64,000 nt of DNA, taken from assembly GCA_964016885.1 (NCBI GenBank), contig OZ024743.1, positions 65,968,001-66,032,000 on the forward strand, read 5' to 3'. A program made the translations under genes and the position numbers. Shown here one piece after another: positions 4,121-60,322 of the stretch. Within the stretch, counting starts at the first letter, position 1. Each line of letters starts with the position of its first letter. Source of the stretch: Eledone cirrhosa. Its lineage: Eukaryota. The notes beneath the pieces are model-generated. The model made no database searches, had not been told where the DNA came from, and saw only the letters and a list, made by a program, of their open reading frames with translations.

Positions 4121-4243
4121 GACGTAGTTACACATCAGTTAGTTCACCGTACCAAACTTCTACCAAACTCGTCCCTTGGACTGAGTGCTCTACTACTACG
4201 GATATAACCCACCAATATTCTACTATTATATACACACACACAA

Positions 4244-4274
<31 letters not shown>

Positions 4275-4527
4275 ATTATATACACACACAAAGAGACGAA
4301 GAAGGGGAAGATGAAGGAGGAGGAGAAACAGATAGTGATGGCAAATGTGATATTAATGTTTGATTAATGTTTAATGTAAATTAATATCATAATATTGAGA
4401 AGTGCAGGGGCGTCGTTGCTTAGTCATCTTGCTGGATGCAAGTAGTTAAAATGACAACAATTCCAATAATAGCAACAATTTCTTCTCCTCTATTCAAATA
4501 CAGTCATATCCTTTTAGTCTCCTTCAA

Positions 4528-21239: not shown

Positions 21240-21318
21240 TGTTTCCTGACGAGTTCGAAACTCGAGATTATCCTTAATAGGATATCTCAAAACGCGACGA
21301 AACCCGAGGGTAGAGACA
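21240..21318 (+). ncRNA. Type I hammerhead ribozyme with extended stem II
   Basis: tgtttc-CTGACGA-g...gagattatcct(taat)aggatatctc...c-GAAAC-cc(ga)gg-GTA-gagaca; 6-bp stem I. Confidence 0.8.
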
Positions 21319-21594
21319 TGATCCTGGTAAGAGTGTATGCATTTCTTCTAACTTTAATTTTATACCTAATTGTGTATGGTTGACGGCATATTTAGTCAAT
21401 TTCCACGTGCTGTTGAAATGTTGGGTAAATAATCTTGCGGTCGGCCGCGAAGAGGCTGCGGTCGTTTATTTATCAAATATTTCTTCATAGGAGCCTTTTA
21501 ATCTTATAGCCTGGTCTAATTTATTTTTTATGTGGTTAATTATGCTAATTGGGAGAGGAAATGGTGTATATTTTTATCAAATGGACATACTTTA

Positions 21595-25221: not shown

Positions 25222-26152
25222 GTGAGGTTTTTTTTAACAAAATGAAAAATAACCGAGGTGTCCTACACGAGTGAAAATATAAAGAAAAAAAGATGAAATC
25301 GAAAATGCAACTGGAGTCTTATTTAAAAAAATATATATATTTATTTGGTTCCTTTACCGGTTTCGCAGTTCTTCTGCTTTTCAAAAGTAGAGTTGAGATG
25401 GAGGGTCTATGGTTTTTCTCACATCTGGTTGGTCTCTGAATGTTACTTGTTTTATATGGAAAAAAGTGGCTAGAAATGCCAGGTTTTTAGAGAAGTAATT
25501 TGATTGGTTGGTCAATAATTATAATAAATTTCGCGCCAGTTCGCGTTACAAAGTTCTTCAGACAAGGTTGTTTTTTCATATATGAGTGTTTGAATTTCTT
25601 TTTTCTTAAAAAAAGGGGGGGGGGGAGGTTTCTCACGAAGGCTGTTTTTAATAAACGTAATTTGATTGGTTATAAATGAAATTATGGCTGTCACGTGGAC
25701 AAGTTTTCATTAAATTTTCGCGCCCTTATTTGGAAATCTATTCTGTAGCCTTTTTAGAGAATTTTATGACAAGCAAAAGATAATGGTCAAGAGAAATTGG
25801 ATGGGAGAATTGTTCTGGTTCAGTGAATATGGTTAGTTCACTGGGGTGTCAGAATTCAGATTTTCTATTGAATAAAGAAAGTAAAGATATGTATGTTTAT
25901 TTGTGTGCTTGTGTGTGTGTGTGTGTGTGTGTGTTTGAATTTCTTTTTACTTAAAAAAGGTGGCTCACGAAGGCTTTTTGTTAATAAACGTAATTTGATT
26001 GGTTATAAATTAAATTATGGCTGGGACAATTTAATGAAAACTTGTTTACGTGACAGCCATAATTTCATTTATAACCAATCAAATTACGTTTATTAAAAAA
26101 AAGCCTTCGTGAGCCTCTTTTTTTAAGTAAAAAGAAATTCAAACACACACAC
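25215..26152. repeat. Family U copy plus a derived inverted repeat (25920-26152)
   Basis: tttgaatttctttttacttaaaaaagg..ggctg / cagcc..ttttaagtaaaaagaaattcaaa. Confidence 0.75.
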
Positions 26153-28361: not shown

Positions 28362-28570
28362 GTATAGTCGATTATATATATATATAATTTGTTTTTGAAT
28401 TTATTTTGCAAGATTTCTTAACTGAAAACGTGTGTTGAAACAGATATTGTTATACTTTGGGAGGGTCATGCTGCCAATAAAAACACACGCACCCGTTGGT
28501 TTTCACTCCAATTTATTATACGTTTCCGGTTTGTTAGTTAGTTCGATAACCAGAAGGTTATTTATATATT

Positions 28571-28613
28571 GTCAAAGCTCTTTCGTCACACATTTTGTGA
28601 CCTCCTCAGTGAT
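28571..28613 (-). ncRNA. Minimal type I hammerhead (left arm of fold-back 28451-28860)
   Basis: atca-CTGAGGA-g-gtcaca(aaatg)tgtgac-GAAA-gagc-TT-tgac. Confidence 0.7.
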
Positions 28614-28703
28614 TAGGTTTTTATTTTCTGTCTCCCCACTGTTCTGTCCTATACCATCTTGTTTTTATGTGCTGTGTGACACAGCACACAACATAAAAAG
28701 CTA

Positions 28704-28746
28704 GTCACTGAGGAGGTCACAGAATGTGTGACGAAAGAGCTTTGAC
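28704..28746 (+). ncRNA. Minimal type I hammerhead (right arm of fold-back 28451-28860)
   Basis: gtca-CTGAGGA-g-gtcaca(gaatg)tgtgac-GAAA-gagc-TT-tgac. Confidence 0.75.
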
Positions 28747-29058
28747 AATATACAAACAACTTTCCGATTATTGAACCAACCGGAAACTTATGATAAATTG
28801 AAATAAAAACGAACAGGTACGTGTGCTTTTATTAACAGCATCACCCTCCCAAAGGATATATGTCGACTATACCGCACCTGTAAAAAAATGTGAGGCACTG
28901 TAACTCAGGTAAATGTCATTATTTACGTAGGAAGTTATTTTAAACTGGAAAAGTTAAACAATTTTTTTAATGGATTCATTAATGCATACAAATAATCGTG
29001 ACAGAAATATGTGATAGCATTTGAAAAAATACGAGACATTTAGATACTCGGTGTGTGA

Positions 29059-30849: not shown

Positions 30850-31452
30850 ACAAAGAAACCCCAAATACGAACTGGCACGAAATTTAATGTACTTATTCAC
30901 GTAACAGTCATAACCAATCAAATTACATTTATAAAAAAAACAATATTTTTGAGTCACTTTTTAAATTGAAAATGACAATAAAGAACCCTCAAACACGAAC
31001 TGGTGCGAAAGTTGATGTGCTTATTCACGTGACTGCATCAACCAACCAAATTTCACTCAAATATGAATAAAAATATCTGAACACGCCGTTTTTTTTAAAG
31101 GCAAATACAATTTGAACTTTGTAACGCGAACTGGCGCGAAATCTATTATACTTATTCACGTGACAATCATCAACCAACCAAATTACTTTTCTAAAAAAAC
31201 CTAGCATTTTGAGCCATTTTTTTCCACATAAAACTGAAGTAACATTCGAACACCAACCAGACGCGAGAAAAACCACAAAACCTCCATCTCAATTCTACTT
31301 TTGAAAAGCATATGAACTGTGAAACCGGTAAAGGAAACAAATAAATATTCTTAAAAAGACTCCAGTTGCATTTCGATTTCATCTTTTTTCCTTATACTTT
31401 CACTCGTGTAGGACATCTCGTATTTTTTTATGTAAAACAAAACTCATTTTCT
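30850..31452. repeat. Family U copy with internal tandem sub-repeats
   Basis: Three cgaactgg(c/t)(a/g)cgaaa..cttattcacgt..aaccaa units, then sequence shared with 20690-20890. Confidence 0.75.
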
Positions 31453-31493
31453 TATATATATATAAATTAAAAGATGGTTAAAGAAGTTCCATA

Positions 31494-31563
31494 TATTTTA
31501 TTATGCGCATTTCGAAAACAACATCATCCTGGGACAAAAATTGTGTTCTCATCAGATAAAATA
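31494..31563 (-). ncRNA. Type I hammerhead (left arm of perfect palindrome 31464-31699)
   Basis: Exact reverse complement of 31600-31669. Confidence 0.8.
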
Positions 31564-31599
31564 AGGTAACATGATATGAGGCCTCATATCATGTTACCT

Positions 31600-31669
31600 T
31601 ATTTTATCTGATGAGAACACAATTTTTGTCCCAGGATGATGTTGTTTTCGAAATGCGCATAATAAAATA
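31600..31669 (+). ncRNA. Type I hammerhead (right arm of perfect palindrome)
   Basis: tattttat-CTGATGA-gaaca...tgttttc-GAAA-tgcgca-TA-ataaaata; 8-bp stem I, palindromic stem III. Confidence 0.85.
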
Positions 31670-31793
31670 TATGGAACTTCTTAAACCATCTTTTAATTTC
31701 TTCTTTAATATATACTCCAGTTCTACCAACTGTTGAGTGCTACTTATCTGATATATGCATAGTTTTATTGTTCTACAATATTACTCACCTTCT

Positions 31794-31874
<81 letters not shown>

Positions 31875-31882
<8 letters not shown>

Positions 31883-32105
31883 GTAGTTTAGAAAGCCACA
31901 ACAATGCAGATGGGAAATCTCGAGGTAGGAAGTGAGTGAGAAATAGGAGAAAAGTGAAAATTGAGAGAAACGAAAAAACGAAAACAAAACAAAGGTAGAA
32001 GGGTTACCGTAGTGGAGATTTAATCCCAATATTTCGGGCTCACGCCCATCAACGGGGGTAAATTTCCCATCTGCATTGTTGTGGCTTTCTAAACTACATA
32101 TTTTA
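31875..32105 (-). mobile_element. PLE-like fold-back element (~43-bp arms) with decayed hammerhead at 32004-32060
   Basis: Arms taaaatatgtagtttagaaagccacaacaatgcagatgggaaat and its reverse complement; minus strand ccg-ttgat-gggc(gtga)gccc-GAAA-..-TA-cgg. Confidence 0.65.
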
Positions 32106-32190
32106 CATATTTCACAATGCTTCAAGCAAACTTTAACACCCATATATATATATATATATATATCTACACAAACACACACATATTTGTATA

Positions 32191-32388: not shown

Positions 32389-32484
32389 TATGTCAAAGCT
32401 GCTCAAACAGGATTAGTATCAGAGGCATTCAAGCCATGACCATCCCGTCTTTTTACTATATATGTAATGTATTATTTCAGTTTA

Positions 32485-35400
32485 GAATGGCGGCAGCGGC
32501 GGCGGTGATGGTGATGGTGTTGACGGTGGTGGTGGTGGAAATGGTGGCGTGGTGGTGGTAGTGTTGGCAATACAAGCTGTGGTGGTGGAAATAGCGGTGG
32601 TGGTGGTGGCATTGGTGCTACTAGTAGTGGTGGTGGAAATGGCGGTGATGGTGGTAGTGGTGTTGACGGTGGTGCTGGTGTAAATGGCGGTGGTGGTGGT
32701 GTTGGCGATACTGGTCGAAATGGCAGTGGTGGTAATGGTGGTAGTGGTGGTGGTGGTTGTGATGGTGTTGGTGGTAGTACAGGTAGTGGTGGTGTTACTG
32801 GTAGTGCTGGTGTCGTGGTAGTAATGGTGGTAGTGGTGTTGGTGGTTGTGATGGTGTTGGTGGTAGTACAGGTAGTGGTTGTGTTACTGGTAGTGCTGGT
32901 GATGGTGGTGGTAATGGTGGTGGTGGTGGTGGTTGTGGTGGTTTTGGTGGTAGTACAGGTAGTGGTTGTGTTACTGGTAGTGCTGGTGTCGTGGTGGTAA
33001 TGGTGGTGTGGTGGTGGTGGTGGTTGTGATGGCGTTGGTGGTAGTACAGGTAGTGGTGGTGTTACTGGTAGTGCTGGTGATGGTGGTGGTAATGGTGGTG
33101 GTGGTGGTTGTGGTGGTTTTGGTGGTAGTACAGGTAGTGGTGGTATTACTGGTAGTGCTGGTGTCGTGGTGGTAATGGTGGTAGTGGTGGTGATGGTTGT
33201 GATGGTGTTGGTGGTAGTACAGGTAGTGGTGGTGTTACTGGTAGTGCTGGTGATGGTGGTGGTTATGGTGGTGGTGGTGGTAGTTGTGATGGTGGTAGTA
33301 CAGGTAGTGGTGATGTTACTGGTAGTGCTGGTGATGGTGGTGGTTATGGTGGTGGTGGTGGTGGTGGTGGTGTTGGTGGTAGTACAGGTAGTGGTGGTGT
33401 TACTGGTAGTGCTGGTGATGGTGGTGGTTATGGTGGTAGTGGTGGTGGTGGTGTTGGTGGTAGTACATGTAGTGGTGGTGTTACTGGTAGTGCTGGTGAT
33501 GGTGGTGGTTATGGTGGTGGTAATGGCGGTGTGGTGGTGTTGGTGGTTGTGATGGTGTTGGTGGTAGTACAGGTAGTGGTTGTGTTACTGGTAGTGCTGG
33601 TGATCGTGGTGGTAATGGTGGTGGTGGTGGTGGTGGTGGTGGTGGTGGTGGTGGTGGTGTTGGTGGTAGTACAGGTAGTGGTGGTGTTACTGGTAGTGCT
33701 GGTGATGGTGGTGGTTATGGTGGTGGTGGTGGTGGTGGTGGTGGTGGTGTTGGTGGTAGTACAGGTAGTGGTGGTGTTACTGGTAGTGCTGGTGATAGTG
33801 GTGGTAATGGTGGTGGTGGTAGTGGTAGTACAGGTAGTGGTGGTGTTACTGGTAGTGCTGGTGGTCGTGGTGGTAATGGTGGTGGTGGTGGTGGTAGTAC
33901 AGGTAGTGGTGGTGTTACTGGTAGTGCTGGTGGTCGTGGTGGTAATGGTGGTGGTGGTGGTGGCTGTGATGGTGTTGGTGGTAGTAAAGGTAGTGGTGGT
34001 GTTACTGGTAGTGCTGGTGATAGTGGTGGTAATGGTGGTAATGGTGGTGGTGGTAGTGGTAGTACAGGTAGTGGTGGTGTTACTGGTAGTGCTGGTGATA
34101 GTGGTGGTAATGGTGGTGGTGGTGGTGGTAGTACAGGTAGTGGTGGTGTTACTGGTAGTGCTGGTGGTCTTGGTGGTAATGGTGGTGGTGGTGGTGGTAG
34201 TACAGGTAGTGGTGGTGTTACTGGTAGTGCTGGTGATAGTGGTGGTAATGGTGGTGGTGGTGGTGGTAGTACAGGTAGTGGTGGTGTTACTGGTAGTGCT
34301 GGTGATAGTGGTGGTAATGATGGTGGTGTTGGTGGTAGTACAGGTAGTGGTGGTGTTACTGGTAGTGCTGGTGATAGTGGTGGTAATGGTGGTGGTGGTG
34401 GTGGTAGTACAGGTAGTGGTGGTGTTACTGGTAGTGCTGGTGATAGTGGTGGTAATGGTGGTGGTGGTGGTGGTAGTACAGGTAGTGGTGGTGTTACTGG
34501 TAGTGCTGGTGATAGTGGTGGTAATGGTGGTGGTGGTGGTGGTAGTACAGGTAGTGGTGGTGTTACTGGTAGTGCTGGTGGTCTTGGTGGTAATGGTGGT
34601 GGTAATGGTGGTGGTGGTGGTGGCTGTGATAGTGTTGGTGGTAGTAAAGGTAGTGGTGGTGTTACTGGTAGTGCTGGTGGTCGTGGTGGTAATGGTGGTA
34701 ATGGTGGTGGTGGTAGTACAGGTAGTGGTGGTGTTACTGGTAGTGCTGGTGGTCTTGGTGGTAATGGTGGTGGTGGTGGTGGCTGTGATGGTGTTGGTGG
34801 TAGTAAATGTAGTGGTGGTGTTACTGGTAGTGCTGGTGGTCTTGGTTGTAATGGTGGTGGTGGTGGTGGCTGTGATGGTGTTGGTGGTAGTAAAGGTAGT
34901 GGTGGTGTTACTGGTAGTGCTGGTGATAGTGGTGGTAATGGTGGTAATGGTGGTGGTGGTAGTGGTAGTACAGGTAGTGGTGGTGTTACTGGTAGTGCTG
35001 GTGGTCTTGGTGGTAATGGTGGTGGTGGTGGTGGCTGTGATGGTGTTGGTGGTAGTACAGGTAGTGGTGGTGTTACTGGTAGTGCTGGTGGTCTTGGTGG
35101 TAATGGTGGTGGTGGTGGTGGCTGTGATGGTGTTGGTGGTAGTAAATGTAGTGGTGGTGTTACTGGTAGTGCTGGTGATAGTGGTGGTAATGGTGGTAAT
35201 GGTGGTGGTGGTAGTGGTAGTACAGGTAGTGGTGGTGTTACTGGTAGTGCTGGTGATAGTGGTGGTAATGGTGGTGGTAATGGTGGTGGTGGTGGTGGCT
35301 GTGATGGTGTTGGTGGTAGTAAAGGTAGTGGTGGTGTTACTGGTAGTGCTGGTGATAGTGGTGGTAATGGTGGTAATGGTAGTACAGGTAGTGGTGGTGT

Positions 35401-37870
35401 TACTGGTAGTGCTGGTGATAGTGGTGGTAATGGTGGTGGTGGTAGTGGTAGTACAGGTAGTGGTGGTGTTACTGGTAGTGCTGGTGATAGTGGTGGTAAT
35501 GGTGGTGGTGGTAGTGGTAGTACAGGTAGTGGTGGTGTTACTGGTAGTGCTGGTGATAGTGGTGGTAATGATGGTGGTGTTGGTGGTAGTGGTGGTGTTA
35601 CTGGTAGTGCTGGTGATAGTGGTGGTAATGGTGGTGGTGGTAGTGGTAGTACAGGTAGTGGTGGTGTTACTGGTAGTGCTGGTGATAGTGGTGGTAATGG
35701 TGGTGGTGGTGGTGGTAGTACAGGTAGTGGTGGTGTTACTGGTAGTGCTGGTGATAGTGGTGGTAATGATGGTGGTGTTGGTGGTAGTAAAGGTAGTGGT
35801 GGTGTTACTGGTAGTGCTGGTGGTCGTGGTGGTAATGGTGGTGGTAATGGTGGTGGTGGTGGTGGCTGTGATGGTGTTGGTGGTAGTAAAGGTAGTGGTG
35901 GTGTTACTGGTAGTGCTGGTGATAGTGGTGGTAATGGTGGTGGTGGTAGTGGTAGTACAGGTAGTGGTGGTGTTACTGGTAGTGCTGGTGATAGTGGTGG
36001 TAATGGTGGTGGTGTTGGTGGTAGTAAAGGTAGTGGTGGTGTTACTGGTAGTGCTGGTGATAGTGGTGGTAATGGTGGTAATGGTGGTGGTGGTAGTGGT
36101 AGTACAGGTAGTGGTGGTGTTACTGGTAGTGCTGGTGGTCGTGGTGGTAATGGTGGTGGTGGTGGTGGTAGTGGTAGTACAGGTAGTGGTGGTGTTACTG
36201 GTAGTGCTGGTGATAGTGGTGGTAATGGTGGTGGTGGTGGTGGTAGTACAGGTAGTGGTGGTGTTACTGGTAGTGCTGGTGGTCGTGGTGGTAATGGTGG
36301 TGGTGGTAGTGGTAGTACAGGTAGTGGTGGTGTTACTGGTAGTGCTGGTGATAGTGGTGGTAATGGTGGTGGTGGTAGTGGTAGTACAGGTAGTGGTGGT
36401 GTTACTGGTAGTGCTGGTGGTCGTGGTGGTAATGGTGGTGGTGGTGGTGGCTGTGATGGTGTTGGTGGTAGTACAGGTAGTGGTGGTGTTACTGGTAGTG
36501 CTGGTGATAGTGGTGGTAATGGTGGTAATGGTGGTGGTGGTAGTGGTAGTACAGGTAGTGGTGGTGTTACTGGTAGTGCTGGTGATAGTGGTGGAAATGG
36601 TGGTGGTAATGGTGGTGGTGGTGGTGGCTGTGATGGTGTTGGTGGTAGTAAAGGTAGTGGTGGTGTTACTGGTAGTGCTGGTGATAGTGGTGGTAATGGT
36701 GGTGGTAATGGTGGTGGTGGTGGTGGCTGTGATGGTGTTGGTGGTAGTAAACGTAGTGGTGGTGTTACTGGTAGTGCTGGTGATAGTGGTGGAAATGGTG
36801 GTGGTAATGGTGGTGGTGGTGGTGGCTGTGATGGTGTTGGTGGTAGTAAAGGTAGTGGTGGTGTTACTGGTAGTGCTGGTGATAGTGGTGGTAATGGTGG
36901 TGGTAATGGTGGTGGTGGTGGTGGCTGTGATGGTGTTGGTGGTAGTAAACGTAGTGGTGGTGTTACTGGTAGTGCTGGTGATAGTGGTGGTAATGGTGGT
37001 AATGGTGGTGGTGGTAGTGGGAGTACAGGTAGTGGTGGTGTTACTGGTAGTGCTGGTGATAGTGGTGGTAATGGTGGTGGTAATGGTGGTGGTGGTGGTG
37101 GCTGTGATGGTGTTGGTGGTAGTAAAGGTAGTGGTGGTGTTACTGGTAGTGCTGGTGATAGTGGTGGTAATGGTGGTGGTAATGGTGGTGGTGGTGGTGG
37201 CTGTGATGGTGTTGGTGGTAGTACAGGTAGTGGTGGTGTTACTGGTAGTGCTGGTGATAGTGGTGGTAATGGTGGTAATGGTGGTGGTGGTAGTGGTAGT
37301 ACAGGTAGTGGTGGTGTTACTGGTAGTGCTGGTGGTCGTGGTGGTAATGGTGGTGGTGGTGGTGGCTGTGATGGTGTTGGTGGTAGTACAGGTAGTGGTG
37401 GTGTTACTGGTAGTGCTGGTGATAGTGGTGGTAATGGTGGTAATGGTGGTGGTGGTAGTGGTAGTACAGGTAGTGGTGGTGTTACTGGTAGTGCTGGTGG
37501 TCGTGGTGGTAATGGTGGTGGTGGTGGTGGCTGTGATGGTGTTGGTGGTAGTACAGGTAGTGGTGGTGTTACTGGTAGTGCTGGTGATAGTGGTGGTAAT
37601 GGTGGTAATGGTGGTGGTGGTAGTGGTAGTACAGGTAGTGGTGGTGTTACTGGTAGTGCTGGTGGTCGTGGTGGTAATGGTGGTGGTGGTGGTGGCTGTG
37701 ATGGTGTTGGTGGTAGTAAAGGTAGTGGTGGTGTTACTGGTAGTGCTGGTGATAGTGGTGGTAATGGTGGTAATGGTGGTGGTGGTAGTGGTAGTACAGG
37801 TAGTGGTGGTGTTACTGGTAGTGCTGGTGGTCGTGGTGGTAATGGTGGTGGTGGTGGTGGTACTAGTAGT
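32485..37870. repeat. (GGT)n-derived minisatellite array A (~63-90-bp units)
   Basis: Core ggtagtacaggtagtggtggtgttactggtagtgctggtgatagtggtggtaat plus a variable number of ggt. Confidence 0.95.
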
Positions 37871-37999
37871 TAGTAGTGGGGTAATTGTGGTGGTGGTGGT
37901 GTTGGAGGAGAGGGTGGTATTGGTGGTTATGTGTTTGTTTTCTTATTGTTTAGGTTGTAGTAATGGTGGTAGTAATGGTGGTAGTGGTAGTTAGTAGTT

Positions 38000-38030
<31 letters not shown>

Positions 38031-38219
38031 CAGTAGTAGTAGTAGTAGTAGAAGTAGCAATGAGGGTGGTGGTGGTTGTGATAATATGTTCTGGAGTTGC
38101 TACAATTGTTATTGTTGTTGTTCTTGCTGGTGGTGGCGGTGTTGTGTTTGTTGTAGTTGTCTTTGTTGTTGGAGGTGATGGCAGTGGCGGTGTTGTTGTT
38201 GTTGTTGCTGGTTGTGTTA

Positions 38220-38538
38220 TTAGTGGTGGTGGTGGTGTTGGTGTTGGTGTTGTTAGTGGTGGTGGTGGTGCTGGTGGTGGTGGTGTTAGTGGTGGTGGTG
38301 GTGGTGGTGGTGTTAGTGGTGGTGGTGGTGCTGGTGTTGGTGTTGTTAGTGGTGGTGGTGGTGCTGGTGTTGGTGTTGTTAGTGGTGGTGGTGGTGTTGG
38401 TGGTGGTGGTGTTGGTGGTGGTGTTGTTAGTGGTGGTGGTGGTGCTGGTGTTGGTGTTGTTAGTGGTGGTGGTGGTGCTGGTGTTGGTGTTGTTAGTGGT
38501 GGTGGTGGTGCTGGTGGTGGTGGTGTTAGTGGTGGTGG

Positions 38539-38569
<31 letters not shown>

Positions 38570-38604
38570 GTTGGTGTTGTTAGTGGTGGTGCTGGTGCTG
38601 GTGT

Positions 38605-38635
<31 letters not shown>

Positions 38636-38703
38636 GTTGGTGTTGTTAGTGGTGGTGGTGGTGCTGGTGTTGGTGTTGTTAGTGGTGGTGCTGGTGCTGG
38701 TGT

Positions 38704-38734
<31 letters not shown>

Positions 38735-38769
38735 GTTGATGTTGTTAGTGGTGGTGGCGGTGTTATTGT

Positions 38770-38800
<31 letters not shown>

Positions 38801-41800
38801 GTTGGTGTTGTTAGAGGTGGTGGTGGTGCTGGTGGTGGTGTTGTTAGTGGTGGTGGTGGTGCTGGTGTTGGTGTTGTTAGTGGTGGTGGTGGTGCTGGTG
38901 TTGGTGTTGTTAGTGGTGGTGGTGGTGTTGGTGGTGGTGTTGTTAGTGGTGGTGGTGGTGCTGGTGTTGGTGTTGTTAGTGGTGGTGGTGGTGCTGGTGT
39001 TGGTGTTGTTAGTGGTGGTGGTGGTGTTGGTGGTGGTGGTGTTGGTGGTGGTGTAGTTAGTGGTGGTGGTGGTGCTGGTGTTGGTGTTGTTAGTGGTGGT
39101 GGTGGTGCTGGTGTTGGTGTTGTTAGTGGTGGTGGTGGTGTTGGTGGTGGTGGTGCTGGTGTTGGTGTTGTTAGTGGTGGTGGTGGTGTTGGTGGTGGTG
39201 TTGTTAGTGGTGGTGGTGGTGCTGGTGTTTGTGTTGTTAATGGTGGTGGTGGTGTTGGTGTTGGTGTTGTTAGTGGTGGTGGTGGTGCTGGTGTTGGTGT
39301 TGTTAGTGGTGGTGGTGGTGTTGGTGTTGGTGTTGTTAGTGGTGGTGGTGGTGCTGGTGTTGGTGTTGTTAGTGGTGGTGGTGGTGTTGGTGGTGGTGGT
39401 GCTGGTGTTGGTGTTGTTAGTGGTGGTGGTGGTGTTGGTGGTGGTGTTGTTAGTGGTGGTGGTGGTGCTGGTGTTGGTGTTGTTAGTGGTGGTGGTGGTG
39501 CTGGTGTTGGTGTTGTTAGTGGTGCTGGTGGTGTTGGTGTTGGTGTTGTTAGTGGTGGTGGTGGTGCTGGTGTTGGTGTTGTTAGTGGTGGTGGTGGTGT
39601 TGGTGGTGGTGGTGCTGGTGTTGGTGTTGTTAGTGGTGGTGGTGGTGTTGGTGGTGGTGTTGTTAGTGGTGGTGGTGGTGCTGGTGTTGGTGTTGTTAGT
39701 GGTGGTGGTGGTGCTGGTGTTGGTGTTGTTAGTGATGGTGGTGGTGCTGGTGTTGGTGTTGTTAGTGGTGGTGGTGGTGTTGGTGGTTGTGGTGCTGGTG
39801 TTGGTGTTGCTAGTGGTGGTGGTGGTGTTGTAGGTGGTGTTGTTAGTGGTGGTGGTGGTGCTGGTGTTGGTGTTGTTAGTGGTGGTGGTGGTGCTGGTGT
39901 TGGTGTTGTTAGTGATGGTGGTGGTGCTGGTGTTGGTGTTGTTAGTGGTGGTGGTGGTGCTGGTGGTGGTGTTGTTAGTGGTGGTGATGGTGTTGGTGTT
40001 GGTGTTGTTAGTGATGGTGGTGGTGCTGGTGTTGGTGTTGTTAGTGGTGGTGGTGGTGGTGGTGGTGGTGTTGTTAGTGGTGGTGGTGGTGTTGGTTGTG
40101 GTGTTGTTAGAGGTGGTGGTGGTGCTGGTGTTGGTGTTGTTAGTGGTGGTGGTGGTGCTGGTGTTGGTGTTGTTAGTGGTGGTGGTGGTGTTGGTGTTGG
40201 TGTTGTTAGTGGTGGTGGTGGTGTTGGTTGTGGTGTTGTTAGTGGTGGTGGTGGTGCTGGTGTTGGTGTTGTTAGTGGTGGTGGTGGTGCTGGTGTTGGT
40301 GTTGTTAGTGGTGGTGGTGGTGCTGGTGTTGGTGTTGTTAGTGGTGGTGGTGGTGTTGGTTGTGGTGGTGTTAGTGGTGGTGGTGGTGTTGGTGTTGGTG
40401 TTGTTAGTGGTGGTGGTGGTGCTGGTGTTGGTGTTGTTAGTGGTGGTGGTGGTGCTGGTGTTGGTGTTGTTAGTGGTGCTGGTGGTGCTGGTGTTGGTGT
40501 TGTTAGTGGTGGTGGTGGTGTTGGTGGTGGTGTTGTTAGTGGTGGTGGTGGTGCTGGTGTTGGTGTTGTTAGTGGTGGTGGTGGTGCTGGTGGTGGTGGT
40601 GTTGGTGGTGGTGTTGTTAGTGGTGGTGGTGGTGCTGGTGTTGGTGTTGTTAGTGGTGGTGGTGGTGCTGGTGTTGGTGTTGTTAGTGGTGGTGGTGGTG
40701 TTGGTGGTGGTGGTGTTGGTGTTGGTGTTGTTAGTGGTGGTGGTGGTGTTGGTGGTGGTGTTGTTAGTGGTGGTGGTGGTGCTGGTGTTGGTGTTGTTAG
40801 TGGTGGTGGTGGTGCTGGTGTTGGTGTTGTTAGTGGTGGTGGTGGTGCTGGTGGTGGTGTTGTTAGTGGTGGTGATGGTGTTGGTGTTGGTGTTGTTAGT
40901 GGTGGTGGTGGTGCTGGTGTTGGTGTTGTTAGTGGTGGTGGTGGTGGTGGTGGTGGTGTTGTTAGTGGTGGTGGTGGTGTTGGTTGTGGTGTTGTTAGTG
41001 GTGGTGGTGGTGCTGGTGTTGGTGTTGTTAGTGGTGGTGGTGGTGTTGGTGTTGGTGTTGTTAGTGGTGCTGGTGGTGTTGGTTGTGGTGTTGTTAGTGG
41101 TGGTGGTGGTGTTGGTTGTGGTGTTGTTAGTGGTGGTGGTGGTGCTGGTGTTGGTGTTGTTAGTGGTGGTGGTGGTGCTGGTGTTGGTGTTGTTAGTGGT
41201 GGTGGTGGTGTTGGTGGTGGTGTTGTTAGTGGTGGTGGTGGTGTTGGTGTTGGTGTTGTTAGTGGTGGTGGTGGTGCTGGTGTTGGTGTTGTTAGTGGTG
41301 GTGGTGGTGCTGGTGTTGGTGTTGTTAGTGGTGCTGGTGGTGCTGGTGTTGGTGTTGTTAGTGGTGGTGGTGGTGTTGGTGGTGGTGTTGTTAGTGGTGG
41401 TGGTGGTGCTGGTGTTGGTGTTGTTAGTGGTGGTGGTGGTGTTGGTGTTGATGTTGTTAGTGGTGGTGGTGGTGCTGGTGTTGGTGTTGTTAGTGGTGGT
41501 GGTGGTGCTGGTGTTGGTGTTGTTAGTGGTGGTGGTGGTGTTGGTGTTGGTGTTGTTAGTGGTGGTGGTGGTGCTGGTGTTGGTGTTGTTAGTGGTGGTG
41601 GTGGTGTTGGTGTTGGTGTTGTTAGTGGTGGTGGTGGTGCTGGTGTTGGTGTTGTTAGTGGTGGTGGTGGTGCTGGTGTTGGTGGTGCTGGTGTTGGTGT
41701 TGTTAGTGGTGGTGGTGGTGTTGGTGTTGGTGTTGTTAGTGGTGGTGGTGGTGCTGGTGTTGGTGTTGTTAGTGGTGCTGGTGGTGCTGGTGTTGGTGTT

Positions 41801-42963
41801 GTTAGTGGTGGTGGTGGTGCTGGTGTTGGTGTTGTTAGTGGTGCTGGTGGTGCTGGTGTTGGTGTTGTTAGTGGTGGTGGTGGTGCTGGTGTTGGTGTTG
41901 TTAGTGGTGGTGGTGGTGTTGGTGTTGGTGTTGTTAGTGGTGGTGGTGGTGTTGGTTGTGGTGTTGTTAGTGGTGGTGGTGGTGCTGGTGGTGGTGTTGT
42001 TAGTGGTGGTGGTGGTGGTGCTGGTGGTGTTGTTAGTGGTGGTGGTGGTGTTGGTGGTGGTGTTGTTAGTGGTGGTGGTGGTGCTGGTGTTGGTGTTGTT
42101 AGTGGTGGTGGTGGTGCTGGTGTTGGTGTTGTTAGTGGTGGTGGCGGTGTTATTGTTGGTGGTGGTGTTGGTGGTGCTGGTGCTGGTGTTGGTGTTGTTA
42201 GAGGTGGTGGTGGTGCTGGTGGTGGTGTTGTTAGTGGTGGTGGTGGTGCTGGTGGTGGTGTTGTTAGTGGTTGTGGTGGTCCTGGTGTTGGTGTTGTTAG
42301 TGGTGGTGGTGGTGTTGGTGGTGGTGTTGTTAGTGGTGGTGGTGGTGCTGGTGTTGGTGTTGTTAGTGGTGGTGGTGGTGCTGGTGTTGGCGTTGTTAGT
42401 GGTGGTGGTGGTGTTGGTGGTGGTGGTGTTGGTGTTGGTGTTGTTAGTGGTGGTGGTGGTGTTGGTGGTGGTGTTGTTAGTGGTGGTGGTGGTGCTGGTG
42501 TTGGTGTTGTTAGTGGTGGTGGTGGTGCTGGTGTTGGTGTTGTTAGTGGTGGTGGTGGCGCTGGTGGTGGTGTTGTTAGTGGTGGTGATGGTGTTGGTGT
42601 TGGTGTTGTTAGTAGTGGTGGTGGTGCTGGTGTTGGTGTTGTTAGTGGTGGTGGTGGTGGTGGTGGTGGTGTTGTTAGTGGTGGTGGTGGTGTTGGTTGT
42701 GGTGTTGTTAGTGGTGGTGGTGGTGCTGGTGTTGGTGTTGTTAGTGGTGGTGGTGGTGCTGGTGTTGGTGTTGTTAGTGGTGGTGGTGGTGTTGGTGTTG
42801 GTGTTGTTAGTGGTGGTGGTGGTGTTGGTTGTGGTGTTGTTAGTGGTGGTGGTGGTGCTGGTGTTGGTGTTGTTAGTGGTGGTGGTGGTGCTGGTGTTGG
42901 TGTTGTTAGTGGTGGTGGTGGTGCTGGTGTTGGTGTTGTTAGTGGTGGTGGCGGTGTTATTGT

Positions 42964-42994
<31 letters not shown>

Positions 42995-44814
42995 GTTGGT
43001 GTTGTTAGAGGTGGTGGTGTTGCTGGTGGTGGTGTTGTTAGTGGTGGTGGTGGTGCTGGTGGTGGTGTTGTTAGTGGTGGTGGTGGTCCTGGTGTTGGTG
43101 TTGTTAGTGGTGGTCGTGGTGTTGGTGGTGGTGTTGTTAGTGGTGGTGGTGGTGCTGGTGTTGGTGTTGTTAGTGGTGGTGGTGGTGCTGGTGTTGGTGT
43201 TGTTAGTGGTGGTGGTGGTGTTGGTGGTGGTGGTGTTGGTGTTGGTGTTGTTAGTGGTGGTGGTGGTGTTGGTGGTGGTGTTGTTAGTGGTAGTGGTGGT
43301 GCTGGTGTTGGTGTTGTTAGTGGTGGTGGTGGTGCTGGTGTTGGTGTTGTTAGTGGTGGTGGTGGTGCTGGTGTTGGTGTTGTTAGTGGTGGTGGTGGTG
43401 TTGGTGGTGGTGTTGTTAGTGGTGGTGGTGGTGCTGGTGTTGGTGTTGTTAGTGGTGGTGGTGGTGTTGGTGTTGGTGTTGTTAGTGGTGGTGGTGGTGC
43501 TGGTGTTGGTGTTGTTAGTGGTGGTGGTGGTGCTGGTGTTGGTGTTGTTAGTGGTGGTGGTGGTGCTGGTGTTGGTGTTGTTAGTGGTGGTGGTGGTGCT
43601 GGTGTTGGTGTTGTTAGTGGTGCTGGTGGTGCTGGTGTTGGTGTTGTTAGTGGTGGTGGTGGTGCTGGTGTTGGTGTTGTTAGTGGTGGTGGTGGTGCTG
43701 GTGTTGGTGTTGTTAGTGGTGGTGGTGGTGCTGGTGTTGGTGTTGTTAGTGGTGGTGGTGGTGCTGGTGTTGGTGTTGTTAGTGGTGGTGGTGGTGTTGG
43801 TGGTGGTGTTGTTAGTGGTGGTGGTGGTGTTGGTGTAGGTGTTGTTAGTGGTGGTGGTGGTGCTGGTGTTGGTGTTGTTAGTGGTGGTGGTGGTGCTGGT
43901 GTTGGTGTTGTTAGTGGTGCTGGTGGTGCTGGTGTTGGTGTTGTTAGTGGTGGTGGTGGTGTTGGTGGTGGTGTTGTTAGTGGTGGTGGTGGTGCTGGTG
44001 TTGGTGTTGTTAGTGGTGGTGGTGGTGTTGGTGTTGGTGTTGTTAGTGGTGGTGGTGGTGCTGGTGTTGGTGTTGTTAGTGGTGGTGGTGGTGCTGGTGT
44101 TGGTGTTGTTAGTGGTGGTGGTGGTGGTGGTGTTGGTGTTGTTAGTGGTGGTGGTGGTGCTGGTGTTGGTTTTGTTAGTGGTGCTGGTGGTGCTGGTGTT
44201 GGTGTTGTTAGTGGTGCTGGTGGTGCTGGTGTTGGTGTTGTTAGTGGTGGTGGTGGTGCTGGTGTTGGTGTTGTTAGTGGTGGTGGTGGTGCTGGTGTTG
44301 GTGTTGTTAGTGGTGGTGGTGGTGCTGGTGTTGGTGTTGTTAGTGGTGGTGGTGGTGCTGGTGTTGGTGTTGTTAGTGGTGGTGGTGGTGCTGGTGTTGG
44401 TGTTGTTAGTGGTGCTGGTGGTGCTGGTGTTGGTGTTGTTAGTGGTGGTGGTGGTGTTGTTAGTGGTGGTGGTGGTGCTGGTGTTGGTGTTGTTAGTGGT
44501 GCTGGTGGTGCTGGTGTTGGTGTTGTTAGTGGTGGTGGTGGTGCTGGTGTTGGTGTTGTTAGTGGTGGTGGTGGTGTTGGTGTTGGTGTTGTTAGTGGTG
44601 GTGGTGGTGTTGGTTGTGGTGTTGTTAGTGGTGGTGGTGGTGCTGGTGGTGGTGTTGTTAGTGGTGGTGGTGGTGGTGCTGGTGGTGTTGTTAGTGGTGG
44701 TGGTGGTGTTGGTGGTGGTGTTGTTAGTGGTGGTGGTGGTGCTGGTGTTGGTGTTGTTAGTGGTGGTGGTGGTGCTGGTGTTGGTGTTGTTAGTGGTGGT
44801 GGCGGTGTTATTGT

Positions 44815-44845
<31 letters not shown>

Positions 44846-46240
44846 GTTGGTGTTGTTAGAGGTGGTGGTGGTGCTGGTGGTGGTGTTGTTAGTGGTGGTG
44901 GTGGTGCTGGTGGTGGTGTTGTTAGTGGTGGTGGTGGTCCTGGTGTTGGTGTTGTTAGTGGTGGTGGTGGTGTTGGTGGTGGTGTTGTTAGTGGTGGTGG
45001 TGGTGCTGGTGTTGGTGTTGTTAGTGGTGGTGGTGGTGCTGGTGTTGGTGTTGTTAGTGGTGGTGGTGGTGTTGGTGGTGGTGGTGTTGGTGTTGGTGTT
45101 GTTAGTGGTGGTGGTGGTGTTGGTGGTGGTGTTGTTAGTGGTGGTGGTGGTGCTGGTGTTGGTGTTGTTAGTGGTGGTGGTGGTGCTGGTGTTGGTGTTG
45201 TTAGTGGTGGTGGTGGTGCTGGTGGTGGTGTTGTTAGTGGTGGTGATGGTGTTGGTGTTGGTGTTGTTAGTGTTGGTGGTGGTGCTGGTGTTGGTGTTGT
45301 TAGTGGTGGTGGTGGTGGTGGTGGTGGTGTTGTTAGTGGTGGTGGTGGTGTTGGTGGTGGTGGTGTTGGTGTTGGTGTTGTTAGTGGTGGTGGTGGTGTT
45401 GGTGGTGGTGTTGTTAGTGGTGGTGGTGGTGCTGGTGTTGGTGTTGTTAGTGGTGGTGGTGGTGCTGGTGTTGGTGTTGTTAGTGGTGGTGGTGGTGCTG
45501 GTGGTGGTGTTGTTAGTGGTGGTGATGGTGTTGGTGTTGGTGTTGTTAGTGGTGGTGGTGGTGCTGGTGTTGGTGTTGTTAGTGGTGGTGGTGGTGGTGG
45601 TGGTGGTGTTGTTAGTGGTGGTGGTGGTGGTGGTGGTGGTGTTGTTAGTGGTGGTGGTGGTGCTGGTGTTGGTGTTGTTAGTGGTGGTGGTGGTGCTGGT
45701 GTTGGTGTTGTTAGTGGTGGTGGTGGTGTTGGTTGTGGTGGTGTTAGTGGTGGTGGTGGTGTTGGTGTTGGTGTTGTTAGTGGTGGTGGTAGTGCTGGTG
45801 TTGGTGTTGTTAGTGGTGGTGGCGGTGTTGGTTGTGGTGTTGTTAGTGGTGGTGGTGGTGCTGGTGGTGGTGTTGTTAGTGGTGGTGTTGGTGTTGGTGT
45901 TGTTAGTGGTGGTGGTGGTGTTGGTTGTGGTGTTGTTAGTGGTGGTGGTGGTGCTGGTGTTGGTGTTGTTAGTGGTGGTGGTGGTGTTGGTGGTGGTGTT
46001 GTTAGTGGTGGTGGTGGTGCTGGTGTTGGTGTTGTTAGTGGTGGTGGTGGTGCTGGTGGTGGTGTTGTTAGTGGTGGTGGTGGTGTTGGTGGTGGTGTTG
46101 TTAGTGGTGGTGGTGGTGCTGGTGGTGGTGTTGTTAGTGGTGGTGGTGGTGTTGGTGGTGGTGTTGTTAGTGGTGGTGGTGGTGTTGGTGGTGGTGTTGT
46201 TAGTGGTGGTGGCGGTGTTATTATTGGTGGTGGTGTTGTT
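38220..46240. repeat. (GGT)n-derived minisatellite array B (33-bp unit, ~8 kb)
   Basis: Unit agtggtggtggtggtgctggtgttggtgttgtt; reads SGGGGAGVGVV on + and PPPPLTTPTPA on -. Confidence 0.95.
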
Positions 46241-47049
46241 AGTGATGGAGGTGGTGGTTTCCTTATTGGTGGTGGTGTCAGCGACAGTGTGGCTGTTGCT
46301 GCTGTTGGTGGTGGTGTCAGCGGTAGTGCTAGTGTTGCTGTTGGTGGTGGTGTAGCTGTTGTTGTTGATGAAGGTGTTGCTGTTGTTGTTGGTGGTGGTG
46401 TTGTAAGTGGTGGTGGTGTTGTCAGCGGTTGTGTTGTCGTTACTATCACTATAGTATGTCTCAAACTCTATTCAGACCATGCAACAGAACGTCTAACATA
46501 TTCTAAACCGGAGCTGTTTTTTTTTCTATGTAGAGAGACACACACATATATGCAAACACATATACACAGACACACACAAATACACACATACACACATATA
46601 CTCACAAACATACAAACCATATACACTAATGCTCACACATACAAACAAACTAGACGCGTAGCCACATATACATGCATACACGAATGTTTGTATGTATATA
46701 TTAAAGTATGTGGCGTATGTATGTATGAATGTATGAATGTATGAATGTATGTATGTATGCATGCATGTGTGAATGTATGTAGGTAGGTATGCATATGAGT
46801 ATGAATATACGTACGTACGTATGGTATGTATGTATGTTCGTATGTATGTATTATGTATGTATGTATGCATGTATTTGTATCTATATATATGGACATAGAA
46901 TATATGAAATGTAAGACCCAAACTCACTTTGTAGGGGAATACAAGTCAAACTGGCTAAAATAGGCCAATTTTGACTTATATAATGCCCCAACCATGGTTT
47001 CTGAAACTCAACTTACAGCATCTGGACTCCCAAGACATTGGAATAACTA

Positions 47050-49855: not shown

Positions 49856-50586
49856 CTACATTTTAAATTTATATTTATATTTAAACGTTGAGTTCAATCT
49901 ATGTCTGCAGCAAGTGAATAAATTGTTCCTCAGATTAAGGGAATTTTTGGACTTTAATATAAAGAATATTTCTTCAATACAAAGATCACAATTTTCTGAA
50001 GAGGAATTAAAAGGAGTACCCTGTGAGATAATATTCCAATTCATCGAATATTTAATATTATCTCGTTTTAGGTCCCATAGTAGGCTAGATAGCGAAGTTG
50101 AAGATTTTTTTGTTTGGATCTGTGAAAGAATTCTTATGATTATTGAAGCGAAATTTAAATTATGTAGAGGTGGAACCAACATAGTTAAATGAATTTAAAT
50201 TAGTTTTAACATTACAATTATACACTACATTTTTAGCTAAGCAGTTGTTACTTAACGGACAGTTAGATTTATTTCTACAGTTACAGTTATTTAATTGAAT
50301 ATTGTTTGGGTTATTATTGGTATTTTGGTTAGGTTTTAAATTCCTATTATTAATTCTATTAATATTTTGTGCTAAATTTTTGGTGGACGAGTAAGTTAAT
50401 TTTATAGTGTGTCTATTAAAAATTGAGTGATATTTCTGTGTTCTAGGGAAGCGTGTGTCAAGAGCTTTAAAGAATAGTTTAGCAATAGGGGTTTTAATAT
50501 TTAGCGAGAAAGGGGGAGCAAACCATAATATATTTCTAGTTCTATTTCTTTTTCGGCTTTTGGAATTATTGTAATGTTTTCTATTA
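49856..50586 (-). pseudogene. PLE ORF C-terminus: linker, Cys-rich motif and GIY-YIG endonuclease (1 stop, 1 frameshift)
   Basis: RNILWFAPPFS..IFNRHTIKLTYS..NCNCRNKSNCPLSNNCLAKNVVY..YVGSTST*FKFRFNNHKNSF../STSLSSLLWDLK..CDLCIEE..CCRH. Confidence 0.9.
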
Positions 50587-50797
50587 CAGTGATTAAGAGA
50601 AATCATTTACGTTTTGTATGGCTATATTGTTGGCTTGAGTAAACATAATTTCTATTTTCAGGACGTGCGTATCTATATGTATGTATATATACATATATAT
50701 TTGTATGTCTTTGCATAAAATACTAATCTCTATAGCAAGGGTACATGTTGAACTCAGATTTTGGTATATTGATCTCAAGTTTCTGAACTAAACATAT

Positions 50798-59837: not shown

Positions 59838-59918
59838 CTGATGGTAGCTAAGATGCTTCCATAGGCGGTATGCCAGTTGAGCACTCTATGCTCTTACAGA
59901 GCAGAGTATGATAGAATA

Positions 59919-60234
59919 GAAAACGAAAAATCAGTGATGCATCTGAACTCAATTTATTGTGTGTGACAACTGTTTCGCCGATGGACTGTTTCGTCGAGAC
60001 GCGATCATTTTGTGGATCTGTCTGATTCTGGACCCGCAGGTTCGACGGACACGTCTAATGATTTCGGAGCATATATGAGAGAATATGCTTCGAAATCATT
60101 AGACGTGTCCGTCGAAACTGCGGCTCCAGAATCAGACGGATCAACAAAATGACCGCGTCTCGAGCTGTCCGCCGGCGAAACAGTTGTCACACACAATAAA
60201 TTGAGTTCAGATGCATCACTGATTTTTCGTTTCT
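59919..60234. mobile_element. Fold-back element (~155-bp arms, 8-bp spacer) with hammerhead 3' half
   Basis: Arms 59919-60074 and 60083-60234; c-GAAAC-a(gt)t-GTC-acacac then aataaa; abuts (TA)n. Confidence 0.75.
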
Positions 60235-60239
60235 ATCTA

Positions 60240-60322
<83 letters not shown>

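Follow-up and report, generated by a model that had tools for sequence, protein, structure and literature searches.

Inverted pLTRs, junction palindromes and one-sided tails have already been described for endonuclease-positive PLEs, and in the accessible portions of the two reports concerned (PMC3846280, PMC8557442) the junction between the inverted copies is read as a product of self-priming. PLEs also carry hammerheads, which are portrayed in the available part of PMC4209133 as type I motifs with a long helix II and a palindromic helix III that needs a dimer, and for which pairs of motifs lying 100-700 bp apart on opposite strands have been reported; according to the same part, dimer-type hammerheads of such a kind cleave poorly alone. 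A further group, the non-LTR retrozymes, is depicted in the accessible text of 10.64898/2026.07.22.740005 as small, non-coding, PLE-derived units in head-to-tail tandem with a type I hammerhead.

The locus analysed here is located in a 64,000-nt stretch of Eledone cirrhosa DNA, which is termed the window throughout. It resembles the published PLE units in its head-to-head inverted pLTRs, its junction palindrome, its one-sided tail and its (TA)n target, whereas it differs from those units, as far as the accessible portions of PMC3846280 and PMC8557442 describe them, in the length of the tail (~90 nt against 30-40 nt), in that both arms are pLTR stumps without an ORF, and in the exactly spacerless junction; moreover, the arm geometry found here favours two independent cDNAs over self-priming. 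Type I architecture, a long helix II and a palindromic helix III needing a dimer are shared with the hammerheads in the available part of PMC4209133, from which the present motif departs by a stem I of 8 bp and by the absence of an unpaired base before G10.1, and the two motifs are here contained in one perfect hairpin, so that a transcript comprises one ribozyme together with its own antisense. Identity with a non-LTR retrozyme, to which the small, non-coding, PLE-derived locus with its type I hammerhead is similar, was rejected because the arms are arranged head-to-head and not in head-to-tail tandem; unlike the retrozymes of the accessible text, the palindrome does not propagate as a unit, each insertion assembling it afresh out of different source variants. 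In a literature search covering mainly papers outside subscription, neither twin priming in PLEs nor palindromes of this kind in cephalopods came up.

Structure of the locus and its parent family

The original prediction of a 236-bp spacerless palindrome was borne out, since two arms of 118 nt each (31464-31581 and 31582-31699) are joined with a 0-nt spacer and disagree at a single site (31480/31683). Complementarity ends immediately outside the arms, where the flanks are unrelated. The palindrome is the longest and most perfect of 573 inverted pairs in the 26-37 kb part of the window, and, of the inverted pairs listed across the whole window, no other is near-spacerless with 99% identity. The predicted extent is correct for the 236-nt core but not for the end of the element at 31699, since the plus-strand arm is element sequence up to ~31795. 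In the same manner, the expectation that transcription from either side gives the same RNA is valid over the core and fails beyond it, where a tail is present on the right arm only. The whole unit spans 31464-31795 and is asymmetric, with a tailed and a tail-less arm placed head-to-head (Table 1), and dinucleotide repeats were found at both flanks when a target-site duplication was sought. The recent origin that had been proposed agrees with one mismatch in 113 aligned columns, against a family mean of 4.9% between arms. The locus is a young, ordinary PLE stump and a routine product of its family.

Table 1. Features of the head-to-head insertion and its flanks, in window coordinates
Feature	Position	Strand	Remarks
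Left flank, (TA)n target remnant	31453..31463
Tail-less arm, PLE 3' end (pLTR)	31464..31581	-	Element positions 1-118; stops in (TA)n, ~7 nt before the end customary for tail-less arms
Type I hammerhead motif, identical to the plus-strand copy	31494..31563	-	C3 at 31555; predicted cut after 31502; mirror of the plus-strand copy
Junction, native self-complementary hexamer AGGCCT	31579..31584		Common to both arms, 6-nt microhomology; recurs as a centre at G000:C6:55091249
Tailed arm, same pLTR in opposite orientation	31582..31795	+	Element positions 1-214
Type I hammerhead motif	31600..31669	+	C3 at 31608; A17 at 31661, with the predicted cut following it; 1-bp stem III, palindromic loop, dimer type
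Stem III / loop 3 palindrome AUGCGCAU	31653..31660	+	Predicted intermolecular pairing -10.5 kcal/mol
PLE tail, ~90 nt	31707..31795	+	Element ~126-214; confined to the tailed arm; in copies of full length, the first part of the 5' UTR toward the ORF
Right flank, (CA)n(TA)n target remnant	31796..31876		No target-site duplication readable

The derivation from a PLE was confirmed, in that the arm is the pLTR of a PLE family whose ORF contains RT together with GIY-YIG at the C-terminus. The arm closes an ORF with RT and GIY-YIG motifs and in one copy (L046) also precedes it, and in near-full-length copies the extra ~90 nt of the tailed arm leads to the ORF. The search of the genome for further copies and for the parent PLE, which had been suggested as a check, yielded both a high-copy repeat and this RT/GIY-YIG-encoding family: at least 52 matches to the arm are listed among 1520 candidates in the 3.0-Gb genome, of which the window occupies part of contig C4, and a hammerhead 25-mer and a tail 27-mer of the locus's own family occur in 799 and 729 exact copies genome-wide, respectively.

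The ORF harbors the motifs YRDD, DKT, CxCX5C and GIY-YIG. DKT is present as HSDKTNN in four copies (L054, L074, L138, L287) and in the ORF of a sister family, while the linker before the C-terminal GIY-YIG carries CxCX5C as CNCPIRTNC and CNCRIKNKC. The GIY-YIG region reads LIYECKV...YIGST with one cysteine, CCHH is absent, and CNLC..E and CxH are found at the C-terminus; at the position of the RWK motif, RRLRWI or RRLRWT is observed, in which RW is kept and K is not. Searches of Pfam and of PDB sequences with the ORF gave no significant match, and in the nearest Atlas clusters a minority of the members bears HTH_animal, GIY-YIG or RVT_1. No full-length open frame of the own family occurs among the matches listed, 92 out of 91,858 candidates having been scored.

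Judged from these motifs, the insertion is a 5'-truncated head-to-head copy of a Hydra-like PLE in (TA)n; the (TA)n insertion and the canonical hammerhead motif, both traits of the Hydra clade, are present. With that clade as characterized in the accessible text of PMC8557442, the locus and its family share DKT, the CxCX5C linker, the absence of CCHH, and CxxC and CxH around a conserved E and N, in addition to the canonical hammerhead and the (TA)n insertion. The differences concern the residue after RW, which is I or T here and K in the Hydra clade, and the size of the unit, which is <3 kb there against ~3.7-3.9 kb between hammerheads here, the clade placement being one by motifs. The sister family, with a pLTR ~84% alike and 12,797 exact tail copies, retains intact 821-codon frames at C5:28067066, C2:65980896 and C17:44286187, and this Hydra-like PLE family has likely been active recently.

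Head-to-head insertions across the genome

The sample consisted of the first 100 of the 729 exact tail matches, all on contig C1, and was selected by exact-match patterns, hence leaning to young copies. Sixty-eight of these tailed copies stand head-to-head with a tail-less arm, and removal of a duplicate (L209, identical to L208) left 67 distinct pairs; 25, out of 93 that terminate in the tail, have no partner within 5 kb, and seven are direct copies continuing into the body, among which L162-L165 are duplicates. The tail-less ends run into (TA)n with n of at least 4 in 60 of the 67 pairs, and 88 of the 93 tail ends lie beside a dinucleotide repeat. A head-to-head insertion of a tailed and a tail-less arm is the normal product of this family. 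The hammerhead is spanned on both arms in 24 of the 67 pairs, and in 15, which are short fold-backs, the gap at the junction does not exceed 14 nt, L216 having been removed from 16 short two-hammerhead pairs on account of an internal deletion. Only one of the 67, L206, is spacerless, with its centre on ATGCGCAT.

Across the genome, exact spacerless centres were found at AGGCCT in two places, the second of which (G000:C6:55091249) is older and shows 5 differences between its arms as well as symmetric variants of its own, and at ATGCGCAT in 32 places, with exactly one tail in 31. An own-family pattern for centres at CATATG, taken from one subfamily, matched 3 places, comprising a palindrome with 163-bp arms and 2 mismatches (L227) and two interrupted cases. 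The sister family contains 716 exact spacerless centres at CATATG, which corresponds to 5.6% of its 12,797 tails. In the 10 that were sampled, one tail was observed in every case (10/10) and the arms share locus-specific variants; both hammerheads are retained in 7, with 0-6 mismatches in 160 nt, and 3 are interrupted. With at least 716 spacerless centres in the sister family, rarity of the palindrome is not supported, and it is neither unique nor special. Descent of the 716 centres from one palindromic master was considered and rejected, as the sampled ones bear different symmetric variants, though L297 and L302 are alike.

Arm geometry and the origin of the palindrome

The tail-less arm extends more than 10 nt further 5' in 48 of the 67 pairs and the tailed arm does so in 8; there are also 8 pairs in which the tailed arm starts at position 126 or later and has no sequence in common with its partner. 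Flush junctions with an overlap of at least 3 nt amount to 12 of 28, against 6.4% by chance (p=5e-8), and 31 other junctions contain inserts of 1-30 nt, several of which resemble, by eye, copies of nearby element sequence. The arms are truncated independently, the junctions are enriched for microhomology, and insertion into (TA)n takes place as diverging tailed and tail-less arms.

On balance, we consider it probable that the locus is a short head-to-head PLE-end insertion in (TA)n, likely composed of two separately primed cDNAs joined 3' to 3', and that it is probably inert as a ribozyme. The endonuclease would nick both target strands, and RT would start at RNA position ~214 on one of them, giving the tailed arm, and at ~125 on the other, giving the tail-less arm. 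Each cDNA would end at the drop-off of RT, the commonest stop being a fixed 5' terminus of the RNA (-41), after which the two cDNA 3' ends would anneal by a few bases and be filled in. Equal stops at a self-complementary word (CATATG, ATGCGCAT; here AGGCCT) would give rise to a spacerless palindrome; at the present locus both cDNAs would have stopped early, at AGGCCT, and the template would likely have been uncleaved RNA. In the twin priming of LINE-1, two primers from the two target strands generate two cDNAs which are joined by microhomology, with inversion of the 5' end. Two-strand priming and joining by microhomology are common to both systems, whereas LINE-1 cDNAs copy non-overlapping parts of one RNA and the arms here represent overlapping parts copied from two fixed start sites, which leads to inverted repeats.

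The joining of two cDNAs agrees with the behaviour of an anole PLE protein, which, in the accessible part of PMC11167929, cuts and extends both target strands in vitro, starts RT at two sites bounding the tail, uses uncleaved RNA and is a predicted dimer. Some observations speak against it. No tailed + tailed pair occurs among the 93 tail-terminated copies, though the same part of the anole study records no strand bias in the start site (PMC11167929), 25 of these 93 stand without a partner in the surrounding 5 kb, and the arms are closer to each other within than between loci, as fold-back or gene conversion would give. Arm divergence amounts to 4.9% within a locus against 9.1% between loci, with 0.34 against 0.03 shared rare variants per pair, yet an arm's own partner is its best match in only 11 of 38 cases, and in four loci (L152, L160, L167, L137) the arms differ more than the cross-locus median.

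These resemblances between arms bear on the snap-back by PLE reverse transcription that was originally proposed; here, one cDNA from the tail end would stop at AGGCCT, fold or switch onto itself, copy back to ~118 and then join the target. Rare variants shared ~11 times more often within than across loci, arms that differ here at 1 of 118 sites, and a native stem-loop at about -29..-12 which coincides with some junctions (L011/L012) speak for such a fold-back, and the symmetric locus taken alone is fitted equally well by snap-back from a tailed cDNA. Simple snap-back nevertheless fails for most head-to-head copies because the second arm must be nested in the first: it cannot yield the 48 of 67 pairs with a tail-less arm further 5', nor the 8 without shared sequence. 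In addition, reverse copying could not create the tail, a fold-back would need a loop, yet the centres are spacerless, and the stop near 125 is left unexplained. As the origin of this family's head-to-head copies, snap-back was not sustained, and for the present locus we regard it as unlikely.

Another mechanism would have self-priming take place on antisense template, or would let the endonuclease resolve, at TA words, an intermediate that is double-stranded or circular; it follows the accessible portions of PMC3846280 and, for the formation of the tail, PMC8557442, and is judged here to be quite unlikely. The preferred ends at -41, ~125 and ~214 all lie at TA-containing words like the target, and tailed arms in two copies (L172, L050) reach >2 kb upstream, for which reason their template should be tandem or circular; both observations suit this mechanism. 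Scattered independent truncation, microhomology and short inserts are, on the other side, features which look as though a pair of free 3' ends had undergone end-joining.

Given the instability of long inverted repeats and the internal deletions in some copies (L216, L226), a head-to-head insertion that was once longer might have undergone a microhomology-mediated deletion of its centre at AGGCCT, whether or not gene conversion also acted on the arms. This secondary origin is very improbable, given that a single arm mismatch leaves little time, that an AGGCCT centre arose twice and that hundreds of longer spacerless palindromes persist. An assembly or fold-back read artefact was also weighed: four public runs searched with 31100-31775 gave a depth that derives from other family copies, and no read, contig or other piece in them passes across the centre with unique flank. 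The palindrome, however, stops at the element ends, its flanks differ, its tail is one-sided and its arms differ at one site; an older palindrome has the same centre with 5 arm differences and shared private variants, and hundreds of analogues obey the family rules, unlike assembly error. Because the structure follows these rules, an artefact is exceedingly improbable.

In both families, arm 5' ends pile up behind a pyrimidine tract at element position -41 (CATATG/ATATG), which lies upstream of the ribozyme. The interval -43..-40 holds 13 of 100 ends in the own family (p=7e-7) and 15 of 23 in the sister family (p=4e-20), and position -41 is likely the transcription start of the pLTR, while this end could also mark where RT stops or where the endonuclease cuts ATAT. 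Ribozyme-cut RNA as template was rejected, there being no peak of arm ends at the ribozyme cut (80-82, 1/100 against 1.8 expected). Steering of junctions to stem III by hammerhead dimers was likewise rejected: 31 sister centres in 12,797 tails (0.24%) are close to the own-family AGGCCT rate (2/729), the count at CATATG being 716 (5.6%), and these are rough ratios of exact patterns.

More generally, and only tentatively, PLE integration may be two-sided, such that RTs from the tail and tail-less ends on opposite target strands run off at the fixed RNA 5' end and their self-complementary 3' ends anneal, generating hundreds of ~330-bp hairpin cassettes (about 5% of the sister insertions). If this were true, inverted pLTRs would have their source in two-sided integration and no longer in self-priming, the transcription start of PLEs would be mappable from DNA alone, and the element would seed its own double-stranded RNA triggers genome-wide. 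What makes the locus valuable is the access it gives to a large natural data set bearing on the way PLEs form inverted ends and tails. The family statistics make the origin of inverted PLE ends testable, and arm geometry, microhomology and the -41 end lead to predictions testable in vitro. Transcription of hundreds of perfect 240-340-bp palindromes, should it occur, would make them strong sources of double-stranded RNA and possibly fragile sites.

The hammerhead motif, predicted folds and neighbouring repeats

The intact hammerhead that had been expected on each strand was recovered by pattern match and covariation as one type I motif per strand, situated in the downstream arm. The motif is composed of a stem I of 8 bp, CUGAUGA, a stem II region (35 nt, with a closing G-C pair), GAAA, A-UGCGCA-U and A17, and the type I core CUGANGA / GAAA / UH with three helices is present. 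Rfam searches listed no hammerhead family either among 150 of 217 rows for the whole window or for the single arm at E<=10; what they did list were microRNA and snoRNA matches attributable to chance. In an alignment of 15 natural variants, hand-picked from this genome, related to one another and set against a structure drawn by hand, pairing holds in 95.8% of cells, both partners change in 9 pairs, and 0 of 500 shuffles match the paired share or the covariation score. Apart from the variable position, the core columns do not vary, and self-complementarity of the stem III loop persists through a G-C to A-U change. The covariation supports a hammerhead fold, falling short of proof.

The single arm is, by fold prediction, a dimer-type hammerhead motif, with a stem III pair probability of 0.002 in the monomer and a dimer duplex of -10.5 kcal/mol. 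In agreement with the long hairpin foreseen for the transcript, the full RNA is predicted to fold at -183.9 kcal/mol, against a minimum of -8.8 for the hammerhead region and -3.6 for the active monomer fold, and the predicted energy of the DNA hairpin is -130 kcal/mol. The antisense arm is transcribed ahead of the hammerhead, and a read-through RNA contains one hammerhead with its full antisense upstream. The suggested conformational switch was discarded because the hairpin at -183.9 kcal/mol and the hammerhead at about -9 are not comparable in energy, stem I has a predicted probability of 0 in the full RNA, and the antisense arm comes first. Since read-through RNA is predicted to form the long hairpin, the palindrome is probably inert as a ribozyme, and the hammerhead would be a passenger of the pLTR. 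Such a hairpin RNA would be a plausible substrate of Dicer or ADAR. Among the public sequencing runs listed for the sequence, none is of RNA.

A very long Pro/Thr-rich open frame on the minus strand ends ~700 nt to the right of the palindrome, on account of which read-through into the palindrome is possible. GGT-rich repeats extend over ~14 kb (32472-46467, minus strand); their open frames of 370, 1477 and 2846 codons read as Pro/Thr-rich, mucin- or extensin-like protein, and the stretch could represent giant exon(s) or satellite DNA.

Several other inverted repeats occur in the window. The same (TA)n tract contains, at 31870-32150, an inverted pair with 49-nt arms at 98% identity, a 143-nt spacer and ~35 nt extra on one arm before (TA)n, which has the appearance of another PLE family inserted head-to-head. 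A near-spacerless inverted repeat of ~330 bp (88%) at 59910-60241 ends in (TA)n and is centred on CATATATG. Older inverted repeats lie beside dinucleotide repeats at 28451-28858 (75%) and 25925-26152 (88%), the former with a hammerhead-like pattern CUGAGGAG..GAAA near 28609 on the minus strand, and a further hammerhead-core pattern was noticed near 21246 on the plus strand, within 21240-21320. Decayed ORF fragments of a related PLE are present at 49886-50588 on the minus strand (tblastn with the sister protein, E 1e-9 to 1e-11), together with a 127-nt piece of the sister family 3' region at 4156-4282. Outside the window, less closely related hammerhead families, whose stem III is A-UAUGUA-U and whose stem II shows compensatory changes, were observed at L167:1052-1118, L042:3139-3206, L116:784-851, L226:1855-1921 and L248:221-289.
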